From: Bacillota bacterium
GTDB lineage: Bacteria > Bacillota > Clostridia > Peptostreptococcales > Anaerovoracaceae
Length of the DNA: 64,000 bases
Assembly: GCA_041844735.1 (NCBI GenBank)
Contig: JBGZBP010000008.1
Coordinates: 14,133 to 78,132 of the forward strand
Reading direction: 5' to 3'
Part shown: piece after piece, positions 12,009 to 17,845 of the stretch
Layout: every line of letters begins with the position of its first letter
How positions within the stretch are numbered: the stretch's first letter is position 1
The notes under the pieces: model-generated
Told to the model about the DNA's origin: nothing
Databases searched by the model: none
The model's input: only the letters and a program-made list of their open reading frames with translations
Position numbers and translations under genes: made by a program

Positions 12009-12021
12009 TATGGAGGAAGAA

Positions 12022-12744
12022 ATGGGTGAAGTTATATTAGTGGCATCAGGAAAAGGAGGAGTAGGAAAGACATCTTTCGTTGCGAATTCCGGTGTCGTAT
12101 TATCACAGATGGGATATAAGGTCTTGTTGATAGATATGAATATGGGGCTTAGGAATCTTGATATTTATTTGGGAATGGAGAGCAAAGTTGTATATGATAT
12201 AGCGGATGTTCTTACAGGTGTATGCCGAATAAAGCAGGCTATAGTTAAGGATAGAAAATTTCCCAATCTATTTTTGATGTCCTCATCTCAGTATAAAGAT
12301 AAAGCTGATATTGCACCGGCTCATATGAAAGTGATTTGTGATAAGTTAAAACCGCTGTATGATTTTATAATAATTGATGCTCCGGCAGGAGTGGATGACG
12401 GATTAATATTGGCTGCTGCAGGGGCGGAAAAGGCTGTAATCATCACCGTTCCTGAAAATGCGGCAGTAAGGGATGCGGATATGCTTGACAGAGTTCTAGG
12501 CAAAATAGGTATTCCAAAAAGAACATATGTCGTAAATAAAGTCAGAGAGAATTTGATAGGGGCGGTGTTTCTACCATCACTGGAGAGTATAGCTGATGTT
12601 ATGAGAGCGGTACCGTCGGGATTTATACTTTACGATGAGAATTTTCACATAGCTGCAAATACGGGAATACCTATAGCCTCAAAAGAAGACAGCTATATCA
12701 AAGACAATATGGAAAATATCATCAAAAGAGTGATTGATTTATAG
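12022..12744 (+). CDS. minD: MinD-type septum-site-determining ATPase (ParA/MinD family)
   Basis: MGEVILVASGKGGVGKTS deviant Walker A. The ATG at 12022 is 5 nt after GGAGG, whereas the track's ATG at 12010 has no SD. Length is 240 aa. Confidence 0.75.
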   Translation: MGEVILVASGKGGVGKTSFVANSGVVLSQMGYKVLLIDMNMGLRNLDIYLGMESKVVYDIADVLTGVCRIKQAIVKDRKFPNLFLMSSSQYKDKADIAPAHMKVICDKLKPLYDFIIIDAPAGVDDGLILAAAGAEKAVIITVPENAAVRDADMLDRVLGKIGIPKRTYVVNKVRENLIGAVFLPSLESIADVMRAVPSGFILYDENFHIAANTGIPIASKEDSYIKDNMENIIKRVIDL

Positions 12745-12785
12745 AAAATAACGATATGCTTTTGTTTTACTGAGAAAGGAAAAAC

Positions 12786-15386
12786 ATGAAAAACCTTGTT
12801 GCAGGGATTTTTGCTCATGTTGATGCCGGCAAAACCACTTTGAGTGAAAGCATTTTGTTTGAAGCAGGCATTATAAAAGAGATGGGGAGAGTTGATAAAA
12901 AGAATACGTTTTTTGACACCTATGAACAGGAGAGAGCCAGAGGAATAACTATTTTTTCAAAACAGGCGACACTTAAAATAGGTGATTTTAACGTTACGCT
13001 CATTGATACACCCGGACATATTGATTTTTCATCCGAATTATGCAAGGTTATTTCTGTAATAGACTACGGTATTATCGTGATAAGCGGAACGGAAAAGCTG
13101 AAACCCCATACATTTACCATATGGAATCTACTCAAGGAAAATAATATTCCTGTTTTTATATTTGTAAACAAGATGGATTATACTCACGTGGATAGGGATT
13201 TAATTCTCATGGAACTTTCGGACAGACTCGATGAAAGAATAGTTGATTTCAGCGGATTCGATTCCGGGAACAGACATGATTTACTGGAGCATATTGCCAT
13301 GACTGATGAACTTGCGATGGACGAATTTATATCGGAAGGAACCTTGAAGGATGAAAGAATAAAAAAGTTGGTGGCAAAGAGGAAAGTATTTCCGTGTTAC
13401 TTCGGATCAGCTTTGAAATACCAAGGCATAACGACTTTCTTTGAAGGTATGGGCACTTTTTTTCAAGAAAAAAAGCCTGAAAAAAACTTTGGAGGAAGAA
13501 TTTTTAAAGTATCTCATGATGACAAGGGAAACAGACTTACCCATATGAAAATTACGGGAGGAAGTCTGAAAGTAAAGGATTTAATAAAATGTTCTTCATG
13601 GGAGGGCAAAGCGAATGAAATCAGGATATATTCGGGTGAAAAATATGTAAATGCAACGGAAGTTCGACAAGGAGAGGTGTGTGCAATTACAGGTCTTAAA
13701 GATTCAATGCCGGGAGACGGTGTAGGATTTGAAAACAAGTATCAAACTTCCGGAATTGAGCCGGTACTTTCATACAGAATGATTTTTCCGGGCGGTGAGA
13801 CTGCAAAAGAAATGTTCCCGCAACTACAAATAATCAAGGATGACTTTTCAGAGATAGATATGAGATACAGGGAGGAATCCGATGAAATAACTGTGAAGCT
13901 TATGGGTGAGGTGCAGATAGAAGTTCTTGAACAAATTATCTCAAAAAAACTGGGGGTAGGTGTGAAATTCGGGGAAGGCAGGGTTCTGTACAAAGAGACT
14001 ATAGACAATACAGTAGAGGGAGTCGGACACTTTGAGCCTTTGCGTCACTATGCCGAGGTGCATGTTATTATACGAAGAGGGGAACGTGGCTCAGGTATTG
14101 TTTTTAAAAATAAGAGCAAAGACGATATGCCGGCTAAAAATCGACAAAATTTGATAATGAATGTGCTTGAGACCTATGAGCATAAGGGAGTTTTGACAGG
14201 TGGAAAGCTTACGGATGTAGAAATAATTTTGGTTGCAGGAGCAGCGAATGTGAAGCACACGGATGGCGGAGATTTCAGAGAGGCGACGATAAGAGCTGTA
14301 AGGCAGGGATTGATGGAAGCGGAGAGCAGACTGCTTGAGCCTTATTATGAATATGAACTTGAGTTGCCGAGAAGATTGACAGGCAAGGCGGCAAACGATA
14401 TAGAAAAAATGTCAGGCAGCATGGATATCCAAGATTTGAATGATGATTTTGTTTTGATTAAGGGCAGGGCACCCATGATAAATATTCATAACTACCGAAG
14501 AGAGGTTAACAGCTATTCCTCGGGAGAGGGAAGGCTTACGACGGCTATGGCGGGGTATGACATATGCCACAATGAAGATGAAGTTTTATCCGAAGTAGCA
14601 TACAACCCTGAAGCCGACATGGAGAATCCTACGGGATCCATTTTCTGTACACACGGTGCGGGATATTATGTGCCTTATGACCAAGTGAAAGAGAAGATGC
14701 ATATAAGAAGTTTTTTATCCGAGTACATGGAAACCGGGAATGAAATTATAAACAAGTCTGCAAGAGAATTTCAGCATGCTGATGACAGAGACAATATTGA
14801 TCCGGATGAAGTAGAAAGAATTTTTTCCAAAACATTTTTCGCCAATTCTGCGGAGAAGACAAAGTGGAGAAGCAAACAGGCTATAGAAAGGGAAAAATAT
14901 AAAAACTTTTTAGCGGACAAGCCCTCAGTACAGAAAAACAGGGTGCAAAAAGATAAGATAATGATTGTTGACGGATATAATGTGATACATGATTGGCAGG
15001 AACTTTCAAAACTTTTGCCGGGAATTATTGATGGAGCCAGAAGCAAGCTCTTGGAGATATTGTCGAATTACAGTTATTCTATAGATGAAAAAATAATAGT
15101 GGTGTTTGATGCATACAGGGTCAAAAACGCCGGTGAGAAAATTGAAAAATATGATGAAATGGATGTTGTCTTTACAAAAGAGGGTGAAACGGCTGATCAA
15201 TATATTGAAAAGTTTGCATATGAAAATCGTAGCAAGTATGATATCAGAGTAGTTACATCTGATGCCATGCAGCAGCTGAGCACGAGAGTAAGCGGTGCAT
15301 ATAATATTTCTTCACGTGAGTTGTTGGAACTGGTAGAGGCGGCAGCTAAGGAATTGAGAATTAAGCATAAAATAGTTGTGGAATAA
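12786..15386 (+). CDS. Fusion protein: Tet(M)/EF-G-like five-domain translational GTPase (about aa 1-640), K/E-rich linker, and YacP/Rae1-like NYN (PIN-like) ribonuclease domain (about aa 722-866)
   Basis: G1 AHVDAGKTT, RGITI, G3 DTPGH, G4 NKMD. The C-terminus IVDGYNVIHDW...VVFDAY...ETADQYIEKF...VVTSDAMQQ is colinear with B. subtilis YacP/Rae1. The ORF is uninterrupted. Confidence 0.85.
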   Translation: MKNLVAGIFAHVDAGKTTLSESILFEAGIIKEMGRVDKKNTFFDTYEQERARGITIFSKQATLKIGDFNVTLIDTPGHIDFSSELCKVISVIDYGIIVISGTEKLKPHTFTIWNLLKENNIPVFIFVNKMDYTHVDRDLILMELSDRLDERIVDFSGFDSGNRHDLLEHIAMTDELAMDEFISEGTLKDERIKKLVAKRKVFPCYFGSALKYQGITTFFEGMGTFFQEKKPEKNFGGRIFKVSHDDKGNRLTHMKITGGSLKVKDLIKCSSWEGKANEIRIYSGEKYVNATEVRQGEVCAITGLKDSMPGDGVGFENKYQTSGIEPVLSYRMIFPGGETAKEMFPQLQIIKDDFSEIDMRYREESDEITVKLMGEVQIEVLEQIISKKLGVGVKFGEGRVLYKETIDNTVEGVGHFEPLRHYAEVHVIIRRGERGSGIVFKNKSKDDMPAKNRQNLIMNVLETYEHKGVLTGGKLTDVEIILVAGAANVKHTDGGDFREATIRAVRQGLMEAESRLLEPYYEYELELPRRLTGKAANDIEKMSGSMDIQDLNDDFVLIKGRAPMINIHNYRREVNSYSSGEGRLTTAMAGYDICHNEDEVLSEVAYNPEADMENPTGSIFCTHGAGYYVPYDQVKEKMHIRSFLSEYMETGNEIINKSAREFQHADDRDNIDPDEVERIFSKTFFANSAEKTKWRSKQAIEREKYKNFLADKPSVQKNRVQKDKIMIVDGYNVIHDWQELSKLLPGIIDGARSKLLEILSNYSYSIDEKIIVVFDAYRVKNAGEKIEKYDEMDVVFTKEGETADQYIEKFAYENRSKYDIRVVTSDAMQQLSTRVSGAYNISSRELLELVEAAAKELRIKHKIVVE

Positions 15387-15401
15387 ACAGGGGGTATATT
15401 T

Positions 15402-16271
15402 ATGAGGGATAAGAGATTGGTTATGGTGCTGTGCGTTATTTTAGCAGTAATATGTATAATGATTGCTATATGGCTTGCAAACGTAGCTCCTCACAGAGAG
15501 TTTAAATTGGGTACAGGAAACAGAGAAAATGTAGAAAAAGAAAGGATCGATGTAAAAAGAATTAAGGATCTTGCAGTTTCAGGTGCATGGGGAGTGGAGA
15601 TGAGAGAAACCGACAAAAAGCAGTTTAAGATAGAAATGATAGTTGATGAAGAATTGCTGAAAAAAGGAGATCAGAAAAATATCAAGGTGAGCTTAAAAAA
15701 AGGAAAACTCTCAGTAGACACCACAGCTTTTGATGAGAAGATGAAAAAATTTGCATCAAAAAATAATCCTGATAAAATTATTATGGTTCTTATACCTCGC
15801 AGTGCGGAACTAAGAAGTATAGCAGTAGATACCGTTTCAGGAAAATTGGAGCTGGACAATGTGACCTGTGAATACCTTAGAGCAAATATTAATTGCGGAA
15901 ATTTTGAGATGAAGCGTACGAAGATAGATGAAATAGATGCTGATATTAATTCCGGGAATATCATAGGAAGCGTGACAGTAGGAAATGTCGATATGAAGAG
16001 CAATTCGGGCAATATTGACTTGAGGTTTGAGAATCTGCCGTATCAAATGGAACTTACAGCAAATGCTGGAGATTTGACGGTGGTAATGCCGGCGGACAAA
16101 GTAAAAATACCTTTGAGTTTCGGATATATGCAGATGGCGGGAGAGAGAGAATTTACAGGACTTCCCAAGCTCATGAAAATGCTGGAAATTGAAGACAATC
16201 AGAAAGCGAAAAAAAGCTTGAAGCATTTATTGACAGTGAATGCGGGGAATCTATATGTTTCAGCCGAATAA
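15402..16271 (+). CDS. Membrane-anchored DUF4097-like beta-repeat protein (putative adhesin fold)
   Basis: N-terminal TM helix. Repeated ..SGNI.. / ..GNVDMKSNSGNIDLRF.. beta-strand repeats. Confidence 0.55.
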   Translation: MRDKRLVMVLCVILAVICIMIAIWLANVAPHREFKLGTGNRENVEKERIDVKRIKDLAVSGAWGVEMRETDKKQFKIEMIVDEELLKKGDQKNIKVSLKKGKLSVDTTAFDEKMKKFASKNNPDKIIMVLIPRSAELRSIAVDTVSGKLELDNVTCEYLRANINCGNFEMKRTKIDEIDADINSGNIIGSVTVGNVDMKSNSGNIDLRFENLPYQMELTANAGDLTVVMPADKVKIPLSFGYMQMAGEREFTGLPKLMKMLEIEDNQKAKKSLKHLLTVNAGNLYVSAE

Positions 16272-16359
16272 TCAGATTACATACAACAAAATAGTCTGGA
16301 TTTAGACTACATGGCTGTGATATAATTAACGGTAGTATTGTTGTGAGAGGAGAGGCAGA

Positions 16360-17064
16360 ATGGAACCGAAATATAGACGAGTTTTATTGAAGATAAGCGG
16401 AGAGGCACTTGCAGGTGAAAACAAATTCGGACTCAGCGAGGATATGCTTAAGGAAGTGGCGTTGCAGGTAAAGGATTTATTTGAGCTTGGCATAGAAGTG
16501 GCAGTTGTAGTTGGTGGAGGAAACTTCTGGAGAGGCAGAACGAGCAAAAGTATGGATCGAGCCACAGCGGACTATATGGGTATGATGGCTACAGTGATCA
16601 ATTCTTTGGCTTTACAGGAAGCTTTTGAAGCAAACGGAATACCTACAAGAGTACAGACAGCTATAGAAATGCGACAAATTGCAGAACCATATATCAGAAG
16701 ACGAGCTATAAGACATCTTGAAAAAAGAACAGTAGTAATATTCGGTGCCGGAACAGGAAATCCATTCTTCTCAACAGATACAACAGCGGCACTCAGAGCG
16801 GCGGAAATCGAAGCGGATGTTATATTATTAGCGAAGAACATTGATGCTGTATATTCCGATGACCCTAATGTGAACCCGAATGCAGAGAGATATTCTCACC
16901 TGACGCATGGCGAAGTTTTACAGAAGGGACTTAAAGTTATGGATTCAACAGCTGCTTCGCTTTGTATGGATAACAATATTCCGATTCATGTGTTTGGACT
17001 TTCCGAGAAGGGTAATGTACTTAAGGCTGTTATGGGTGAATCAATAGGAACTATTATAAAATAA
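16360..17064 (+). CDS. pyrH: UMP kinase
   Basis: [13 protein letters not shown]...[11 protein letters not shown], 234 aa. Confidence 0.95.
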
Positions 17065-17095
17065 GATACAGGATATAATTAGGAGGAAAAACGAT

Positions 17096-17650
17096 ATGTT
17101 TATAGATGACCTTAAATTTGAAGATAAAATGAAAAAAACCATAGAGGTATTAAAGAATGAGCTTAATACAGTGAGGGCGGGAAGAGCGAACCCGGCACTT
17201 TTGGATAAGGTTATGGTTGAGTACTACGGTACGCCGACGCCTTTAAAAAACTTGTCAAACATTTCCGTTCCTGAACCTAGAACGCTGATGATTACTCCTT
17301 TTGATGCGGGTTCAATTTCTGATATAGAAAAAGCGATTAACGTAGCGGAATTAGGTGTTAACCCGTCAAATGACGGAAAGGTAATAAGAATTTCCATACC
17401 TGCATTGACAGAGGAACGAAGAAAAGAACTCACTAAGAATGTTAAAAAAATCGGAGAAGATGCAAAAGTTGCAATTAGAAATGAGAGAAGAGAAGCAAAT
17501 GACAAGCTTAAAAAAGAGGAAAAATCCGGTGAGTTTTCAGAGGACGATTTAAAGAAGGAACTGGATGCAGTTCAAAAAATAACAGATAAATATACAAAAG
17601 AAATAGAAAGTCTTGTAGCAGCTAAAGAAGCGGAAATCATGGAGGTTTAA
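17096..17650 (+). CDS. frr: Ribosome recycling factor
   Basis: Canonical Frr sequence (LNTVRAGRANPALLD...IPALTEERRKEL), 184 aa. Confidence 0.95.
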   Translation: MFIDDLKFEDKMKKTIEVLKNELNTVRAGRANPALLDKVMVEYYGTPTPLKNLSNISVPEPRTLMITPFDAGSISDIEKAINVAELGVNPSNDGKVIRISIPALTEERRKELTKNVKKIGEDAKVAIRNERREANDKLKKEEKSGEFSEDDLKKELDAVQKITDKYTKEIESLVAAKEAEIMEV

Positions 17651-17653
17651 TCG

Positions 17654-17845
17654 TTGCTGAATAAAGAAAGACTACTCGGAATGAAGATTGAAAATGCTGT
17701 GGCCCTTCTAAATATAGAGGGGCTTGATTTTAATATTAAAGAAACATCTGCAGCACGTCCGAGGCAGGAATTATCTGAAGAGAAAATAGTGATAAGAGTT
17801 AAAGAAACGGCAGGAAAAGTGGAATTGACCTGCTGCAGGGTTTGA
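17654..17845 (+). CDS. Hypothetical 63-aa protein (TTG start)
   Basis: The ORF fills the frr-uppS gap. GGAGG lies 8 nt upstream of the TTG. I recognise no family. Confidence 0.35.
   Translation: MLNKERLLGMKIENAVALLNIEGLDFNIKETSAARPRQELSEEKIVIRVKETAGKVELTCCRV

Follow-up and report, generated by a model that had tools for sequence, protein, structure and literature searches.

Rae1 (YacP) is a ribosome-dependent messenger RNA (mRNA) endonuclease that acts at stalled or collided ribosomes (PMC12407103, PMC13622287). Cleavage in the ribosomal A site was withdrawn in 2025 by the laboratory that had described it, and the cut is now placed at -12 relative to the A site, on the mRNA exit side (PMC12407103). 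A 2026 preprint describes Rae1-dependent transfer-messenger RNA (tmRNA) tagging after ribosome collisions, which feeds trans-translation, and a ribosome-bound structure of Rae1 is said not to exist (PMC13622287). Two papers noted that a nuclease domain of this type, NYN_YacP, also occurs fused to a translational GTPase: TetM-like/NYN_YacP fusions were reported in Clostridia by Atkinson 2015 (BMC Genomics, PMC4342817), and a TetM-NYN_YacP fusion was found in some Clostridia, with its role called unclear, by Matelska 2017 (NAR, PMC5499597). Here, we analyse one such fusion gene, at positions 12786..15386 (+) of a 64,000-nt stretch of DNA (the window) from a Bacillota bacterium of the Anaerovoracaceae (assembly GCA_041844735.1, contig JBGZBP010000008.1, positions 14,133 to 78,132 of the forward strand). 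Judged by its sequence, the encoded protein is a divergent new member of this known, functionally uncharacterised fusion family. A preliminary description of the same DNA knew of no characterised example, and the family is indeed still uncharacterised; the architecture itself was already in both papers.

The gene is a single open reading frame (ORF) of 866 codons plus stop, read from the window sequence and uninterrupted as first described; with the base composition of the window a stop is expected every ~13 codons, and the chance of 866 open codons is ~2e-30. Its product is 866 amino acids (aa) long, compared with ~640 aa for tetracycline ribosomal-protection proteins (RPPs). The parts of the protein, all encoded on the + strand, were delimited by Pfam profiles, by conservation and by an AlphaFold2 (AF2) model with its predicted local distance difference test (pLDDT) scores, as follows.

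12786..15386, +, whole gene, stop included: 866-aa Tet/EF-G-like GTPase with a Rae1-type NYN nuclease (ORF, Pfam, NCBIfam)
12786..13460, +, G domain, residues 1-225 (Pfam GTP_EFTU, residues 6-224, E 9e-44)
13461..13976, +, domains II and III, residues 226-397 (weak Pfam EF-G_D2 and EFG_III; AF2 pLDDT >90)
13977..14324, +, domain IV, the A-site-probing domain, residues 398-513 (Pfam EFG_IV, 398-512)
14325..14555, +, domain V, residues 514-590 (Pfam EFG_C, 515-597, E 7.4e-16)
14556..14711, +, module A, residues 591-642 (conservation; AF2 pLDDT ~96)
14712..14951, +, flexible charged tether, residues 643-722 (AF2 confidence, composition, low conservation)
14952..15383, +, YacP/Rae1-type NYN endoribonuclease domain, residues 723-866 (Pfam NYN_YacP, alignment to B. 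subtilis Rae1)
14970-14972, 15108-15110, 15195-15197 and 15261-15263, +, predicted catalytic aspartates D729, D775, D804 and D826, respectively (alignment to Rae1)

All motifs quoted in the preliminary description were located in the translation, at residues 10 (AHVDAGKTT), 52 (RGITI), 74 (DTPGH), 128 (NKMD), 727 (IVDGYN), 772 (VVFDAY), 801 (ETADQY) and 822 (VVTSD).

The same architecture recurs throughout a large family. In a homologue search that spanned 5.8 billion proteins, the best 120 matches, which are the ones described here, are 874-911 aa long, cover 97-100% of the query at 47-49% identity (E ~1e-273) and all have one set of Pfam domains, PF05991 among them. The colinear architecture is shared by at least 100 protein clusters at 50% identity, and the best 150 cluster representatives (HMMER) are mostly 830-1000 aa long and match query residues 1 to ~855 in a single stretch. 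From these 150 we picked 100 full-length representatives and, with nine homologues from the protein search above, built the alignment (A2) that underlies the 110-sequence analysis; its mean column identity is 37%. We also compared 84 genomic loci, 80 of them from species-representative genomes, and these best 80 all span query residues 1 to ~858. These 80 loci belong to Lachnospiraceae, Peptostreptococcaceae, Fusibacter, Desulfitobacterium/Desulfosporosinus, Clostridium, Oscillospiraceae, Limnochordia, Epulonipiscium and other groups, and the relatives that carry a name are nearly all Clostridia or unclassified Bacillota, with two metagenome-assembled genomes labelled Bacteroides. The fusion is widespread in clostridial bacteria, and gut and cellulolytic Clostridia have it in abundance, Lachnospiraceae and Acetivibrio thermocellus among them. 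The window protein has the domain order of this clostridial family of Tet-like GTPase/NYN_YacP proteins (GTP_EFTU, EF-G domains II-V, C-terminal NYN_YacP) and aligns with it colinearly over its full length, sharing the domain IV motifs GVGHFEPLRHYAEVH and KHTxGGDFR as well as module A and the invariant residues of the GTPase, domain IV and NYN parts. It differs from the described fusions in sequence, with 47-49% identity to the nearest among the listed matches, and in its genomic setting, mreBCD-PBP2-minD...pyrH-frr, which was not seen elsewhere.

This conservation bears directly on whether two genes could have been joined by an assembly or frameshift error, or by a decaying pseudogene. The idea draws on a single feature, the low-complexity and poorly conserved tether (15% identity); no support for it was found. 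The fusion is in frame and colinear in the 120 best homologues, the 100 aligned clusters and the 84 genomic loci, the catalytic residues are invariant in both halves, and the next gene begins 16 nt past the stop codon. Since the fusion is conserved and in frame throughout, we reject a frameshift artefact, and an artefact of any of these kinds is scarcely credible; the preliminary description had rightly treated the fusion as real.

The N-terminal two-thirds of the protein, residues 1-590, form a complete five-domain translation-factor GTPase, as had been proposed for residues about 1-640, according to both the Pfam domains and the AF2 fold. The G domain contains G1 (AHVDAGKTT, 10-18), the switch-I threonine (T55), G3 (DTPGH, 74-78, with the catalytic His78), G4 (NKMD, 128-131) and G5 (SAL, 208-210), so that the set G1-G5 and the catalytic His of the DxxGH motif that defines a translational GTPase is present, with all motifs invariant or nearly so; D13, G15, K16, T55, D74-H78, K129 and D131 are invariant in the 110 diverse fusion-family sequences. 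The AF2 model made from the 110-sequence alignment has a mean pLDDT of 92.1 and a predicted template modelling (pTM) score of 0.77, whereas a shallow 26-sequence alignment gave a poorer model (pLDDT 67.5). Foldseek relates its body to EF-G, EF-G2, archaeal EF2 and TetM (E 1e-44 to 1e-51), the highest template modelling scores being those to archaeal EF2-GMPPCP, and in domains II and III, where the Pfam matches are weak, the modelled fold resembles EF-G, EF2 and TetM. Domain V is colinear with TetM and TetO as far as TetM residue 616.

Of all parts of the fusion protein, domain IV is conserved best. Mean identity between the window protein and its 109 relatives is 54% in domain IV, compared with 45% in the G domain, 43% in the NYN domain and 15% in the tether. 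Residues H415, E417, P418, L419 and D496 are invariant in the 110 sequences, and the tip of the domain carries two almost invariant, family-specific motifs, GVGHFEPLRHYAEVH (412-426) and KHTDGGDFR (490-498; KHTxGGDFR in the family). In alignments, the KH..GG loop of the latter falls on the diphthamide loop of archaeal EF2 and not on loop III of TetM. With EF-G and archaeal or eukaryotic EF2 the protein shares the overall fold (Foldseek E 1e-45 to 1e-51), this diphthamide-loop alignment and, weakly, the C-terminal helix; it differs from them by the appended nuclease and by EF-G scores below the cut-offs, and a translocase role is not expected.

By sequence comparison, the fusion is closer to RPPs than to EF-G. 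The NCBIfam model tet_protect matches end to end (query 7-591 against model positions 4-614 of 614) with 360.5 bits, and TetO (E 2e-62) and TetM (E 5e-57) are better PDB matches than EF-G, whose two NCBIfam models reach 245.6 bits (cut-off 583) and 212.9 bits (cut-off 659.4), each in two stretches. To these top matches Tet(M) and Tet(O) add a shared build, that of an EF-G-like GTPase with five domains in which the G' region is reduced. Together with the ties of Rae1 biology to antibiotic-induced stalling and the TetM/W/O/S family names that NCBI gives to some members, the likeness favours a suggestion of Atkinson 2015, that the protein would protect ribosomes from antibiotics, dislodging tetracycline or another A-site drug in the manner of Tet(M) while the RNase aids resistance. 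We consider this improbable. The tet_protect score is less than half its cut-off of 775, and the RPP sub-models likewise stay below every curated cut-off (256 bits against 1100, 255 against 900, 204 against 1425 and 194 against 1420). Loop III, described as the element of Tet(M) that matters most for function, although its conformation may outweigh its sequence (PMC4750697), bears on both sides: TetM L505-Y506-Y507-S508-P509-V510 aligns without gaps to a loop of equal length, and a TetM triple mutant, S508A/P509A/V510A, is active (PMC4750697), which speaks for the suggestion; against it, the aligned loop reads A-A-N-V-K-H (family consensus RAHxKH) and the family has invariant tip motifs of its own. 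A PDB search with a profile of residues 575-645 recovered neither TetM nor TetO at E up to 10, and we rejected the idea that module A is a homologue of the C-terminal extension of TetM. The gene is chromosomal, has the GC content of its surroundings (39.4%, compared with 39.5% for the window), occurs in many clostridial families beside variable neighbours and lacks a transposon or conjugative context; the 'plasmid' and 'phage' records that match the family are chromosome fragments. The preliminary description had argued against a mobile tetracycline-resistance gene on the grounds of genomic setting, and the matching GC content and the variable, non-mobile neighbours agree with it. With ~270 extra residues, another loop III, no detectable TetM-type C-terminal extension and a location off mobile elements, the fusion protein, as far as its sequence tells, is not a bona fide tetracycline RPP.

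Between the GTPase body and the nuclease lie two dissimilar segments. Module A consists of an EF-G-like C-terminal helix followed by a β-hairpin and a helix. S618 is invariant in it and Y591, C594, Y606, D611, F620, C621, G624, V629 and H639 are ~90% conserved (110 sequences); the family motif SVFC.HG is found in the window protein too. Helix 597-604 shows a weak alignment to mitochondrial EF-G, at its C-terminal helix (E 0.23, PDB profile search), and beyond its first ~28 residues module A has no PDB or Pfam match, with only sub-threshold noise in Pfam. A Cys/His zinc site, which the residues might suggest, is unsupported: C594 and C621 can each be lost without the other, and H595 and H623 vary. 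The tether that follows is 39% K/R/E/D, with three predicted helices between low-confidence segments; pLDDT falls below 50 at residues 660-672, 688-699 and 708-718, the sole disordered segments of the tether. Its last 32 residues are basic (net +8), and the segment preceding the NYN domain is net positive in 91% of family members. From residue 598 to residue 722 the region varies between 100 and 156 aa across the family and is always in frame. The K/E-rich linker of about 80 aa in the preliminary description therefore corresponds to the charged tether at 643-722, but residues 591-642 are a conserved and confidently folded module.

The C-terminal domain is recovered by the Pfam NYN_YacP profile at residues 726-859 (E 3.8e-42, 144.5 bits against a cut-off of 24.6), which confirms the earlier assignment. 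It matches residues 3-136 of B. subtilis Rae1 (PDB 5MQ8) with 41% identity over ~130 residues (E 1.9e-20), and D729, D775, D804 and D826 align to Rae1 D7, D53, D81 and D104; the four acidic motifs said to be retained are thus present and correspond to catalytic residues of Rae1. These four aspartates, together with Y731, N732 and T797, are invariant across the 110 sequences. The D7N/D81N form of Rae1 is a published catalytically dead mutant (PMC10351889). The alignment is not end to end, as had been stated, because the C-terminal tail of Rae1 is missing: the domain covers Pfam model positions 1-136 of 166, and ~43% of diverse family members also have a short tail after the NYN core. Fused NYN domains are 43% identical to stand-alone Rae1, and the Rae1 proteins of B. 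subtilis and C. difficile are 42% identical to each other, which suggests a comparable constraint on the whole NYN domain. Rae1 (5MQ8/5MQ9) is otherwise a stand-alone protein of ~170-175 aa with a C-terminal tail, encoded at an rlmB-sigH locus, whereas the window domain is fused, tailless and at a different locus. A tree of NYN domains gave no resolution between a single fusion event and several. From their motifs both enzymatic halves look catalytically competent, and the catalytic residues of both halves are under strong purifying selection.

A ribosome-targeted nuclease, as first proposed, is the most reasonable reading of the sequence and of the known binding of EF-G and RPPs to ribosomes; that the GTPase delivers a Rae1-type endonuclease to stalled ribosomes is, in our judgement, an even call. 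The GTP-bound body would dock at the ribosomal factor-binding site like EF-G and Tet(M), with domain IV directed toward the decoding centre; because docking would require an A site or factor site that has long been free, only stalled ribosomes would be engaged. The tethered NYN domain would then cut RNA on the same ribosome or on a neighbouring collided one, with mRNA, the target of Rae1, as the likeliest substrate. Release of the factor would follow from GTP hydrolysis at the sarcin-ricin loop, and the truncated mRNA would pass the ribosome on to trans-translation. The GTPase would in this way replace whatever brings stand-alone Rae1 to ribosomes, and the cut site need not equal the -12 position of Rae1. 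The C-terminal helix of EF-G folds back to domain IV, so the tether probably exits near the A-site side and not at the stalk base. With ~80 residues it could reach mRNA near the A site or the entry channel, or the mRNA between the two ribosomes of a disome. Delivery by the GTPase is favoured by an architecture that is under selection, by GTPase catalytic residues and four NYN aspartates that stay invariant in an alignment with a mean column identity of 37%, and by an NYN-proximal tether that is basic in 91% of members and always in frame. The strong conservation of domain IV, the modelled EF-G/EF2/TetM fold, the likeness of the NYN domain to Rae1 and the action of Rae1 itself at stalled or collided ribosomes also speak for it.

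Several points weigh against it. The -12 cut of Rae1 on the exit side is far from the factor-binding site of an EF-G-like body, so that the geometry would differ from that of Rae1 and reach would depend on the tether or on action across a disome. The preliminary description had taken Rae1 cleavage in the A site as established and had argued that both halves dock there; that view was superseded in 2025, and the argument fails with it. No conserved gene neighbours indicate a pathway (three genes per side, clustered over the 84 loci). Full-text literature searches gave no functional study of the fusion, judged by title and abstract, and both papers that mention it call its function unclear. The substrate, finally, could be rRNA or transfer RNA (tRNA) and not mRNA.

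The last point leads to a different role, in which the body would bind immature or idle ribosomes and the NYN domain would cleave ribosomal RNA (rRNA) or tRNA in ribosome biogenesis, quality control or decommissioning. There is a parallel in eukaryotes, where a translation-like GTPase cycle is paired with the PIN nuclease Nob1, and EF-G-family GTPases that take part in ribosome assembly are known (Efl1, LepA, BipA). YacP itself was reportedly first proposed, by Anantharaman & Aravind, to process rRNA or tRNA. The extremely conserved domain IV tip, with KH..GG at the position of the EF2 diphthamide loop, is compatible with rRNA recognition, one related locus is flanked by rsmH and gltX, and stand-alone yacP sits in an rRNA/tRNA-processing operon, gltX-cysS-mrnC-(thyX)-rlmB-yacP-sigH, observed here at the C. 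difficile locus and also described by Matelska 2017 (PMC5499597). Rae1, however, has no reported role in rRNA processing (PMC12407103, PMC10351889), and across the 84 loci no conserved linkage ties the fusion to genes for rRNA or ribosome biogenesis. The present results do not discriminate between substrates; on balance we regard a biogenesis or decommissioning role as unlikely, if less so than antibiotic protection.

Returning to delivery of the nuclease to stalled ribosomes, a more specific form of it can be put forward tentatively, and we would sooner expect it to fail than to hold: the fusion would be the first translational GTPase to carry its own RNase effector, a GTP-proofread cutter of mRNA on stalled clostridial ribosomes. 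The invariant tip of domain IV would detect an A site or factor site that has long been vacant, and the cut would be placed differently from that of Rae1, for instance at the A site or 3' of it, or else across a disome, opening the way to rescue by tmRNA. Were this so, the fusion would be a bacterial, single-polypeptide functional counterpart of Hbs1-Dom34 plus Cue2, and a natural experiment on how Rae1-type nucleases engage ribosomes. MutS2, SmrB and Cue2 offer a functional analogy only, in that a ribosome-recognition or NTPase module is coupled to an endonuclease for the rescue of stalled ribosomes; their folds are unrelated (ABC-type ATPase/SMR, compared with translational GTPase/NYN), and they bind on the 30S subunit at the disome interface instead of at the factor-binding site. 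Because a Rae1-type domain is here tethered to a GTPase with a well-understood docking site, its recruitment would be effectively hard-wired, which would give structural and biochemical work a good point of entry in this family, and a timely one after the Rae1 studies of 2025-2026. Given the abundance of the family, a role in ribosome rescue or in antibiotic tolerance, if true, would be broadly relevant.

In the window the fusion gene has a chromosomal, housekeeping setting. It lies downstream of mreB, mreC, PBP2 and a MinD/ParA-like ATPase and upstream of a DUF4097 gene, pyrH, frr, uppS and cdsA, a gene order typical of Bacillota, and the long ORFs of the 64-kb window are almost all on the + strand. 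The features nearest to it, and one unassigned ORF upstream, are as follows.

12774..12780, +, Shine-Dalgarno-like GAAAGGA, 5 nt upstream of the ATG (read from the sequence)
12010-12744, +, MinD/ParA-type P-loop ATPase, ending 41 nt upstream of the fusion gene
15402-16271, +, DUF4097 'toastrack' protein, starting 16 nt downstream of the fusion stop codon
8693-9226, +, 177-aa ORF between mreC and the PBP2-type transpeptidase, with no Pfam match at E up to 1e-4; by its position, probably mreD

The tight spacing of both neighbours suggests co-transcription in the window genome, but neither the MinD/ParA-type nor the DUF4097 gene recurs beside the fusion in other genomes. The proximity to frr and pyrH is likewise not conserved in the other genomes examined. 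The neighbours of the fusion gene in A. thermocellus, Anaerostipes faecalis and Aminipila terrae are unrelated, and generic ABC ATPases, at scattered positions in 11 of the 84 loci, are the only recurrent neighbour family. A scan for promoters and terminators did not rise above shuffled controls (20 promoter-like matches against 16.6 ± 4.0; 2 terminator-like against 2.6 ± 1.6). The window (1-64000) contains no Rfam family at gathering score and no tRNA or tmRNA gene, and none of the anti-phage defence models of PADLOC matches the fusion protein.

The window holds no second NYN gene. Elsewhere, too, there is exactly one NYN match per locus, inside the fusion gene (84 of 84 loci, 8 kb on either side). 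A search for stand-alone rae1 alongside the fusion, with C. difficile Rae1 as the query, returned close Peptostreptococcaceae only.

Two apparent associations with mobile elements were followed up and rejected. Both 'phage' matches are chromosome-like records. One of them, MT835514.1, labelled 'UNVERIFIED: Bacteriophage sp.', is a bacterial chromosome fragment, with no phage functions in its ten largest ORFs; it encodes AddB/AddA, the CspB protease, FeoB, RsmH, an 869-aa fusion (15204-17813), GltX, glycerol kinase and a radical-SAM protein, the fusion gene lying between rsmH and gltX. The 'plasmid' matches are large chromosome-like records. NZ_CP149721.1 (44827-53183) and 11 similar C. difficile records in PLSDB, 'plasmids' of 96-114 kb that carry stand-alone rae1, also look like pieces of chromosome; their array, gltX-cysS-mrnC-thyX-rlmB-yacP/rae1 (175 aa)-sigH-tuf-rpmG-secE-nusG-rplK-rplA, is core chromosomal and displays the canonical locus of stand-alone rae1 in one member of the Clostridia.

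Members of the family go under the NCBI name 'translation factor GTPase family protein', but several (P0064, P0066 and a protein of Agathobacter rectalis, NZ_CP143948.1) are labelled TetM/TetW/TetO/TetS resistance proteins. With the window protein at 256-360 bits, well short of cut-offs of 775-1100, labels of this kind may yield false positives when resistomes are surveyed, and automatic annotation of many members as Tet(M)/(W)/(O)/(S) can inflate resistome estimates. A few relatives depart from the common architecture. P0204 (746 aa) is without domain V and module A and retains the NYN domain, P0269 (719 aa) terminates after a tether helix, and P0240 (642 aa) and P0250 (651 aa) stop just past module A, as either unfused forms or truncated gene calls.

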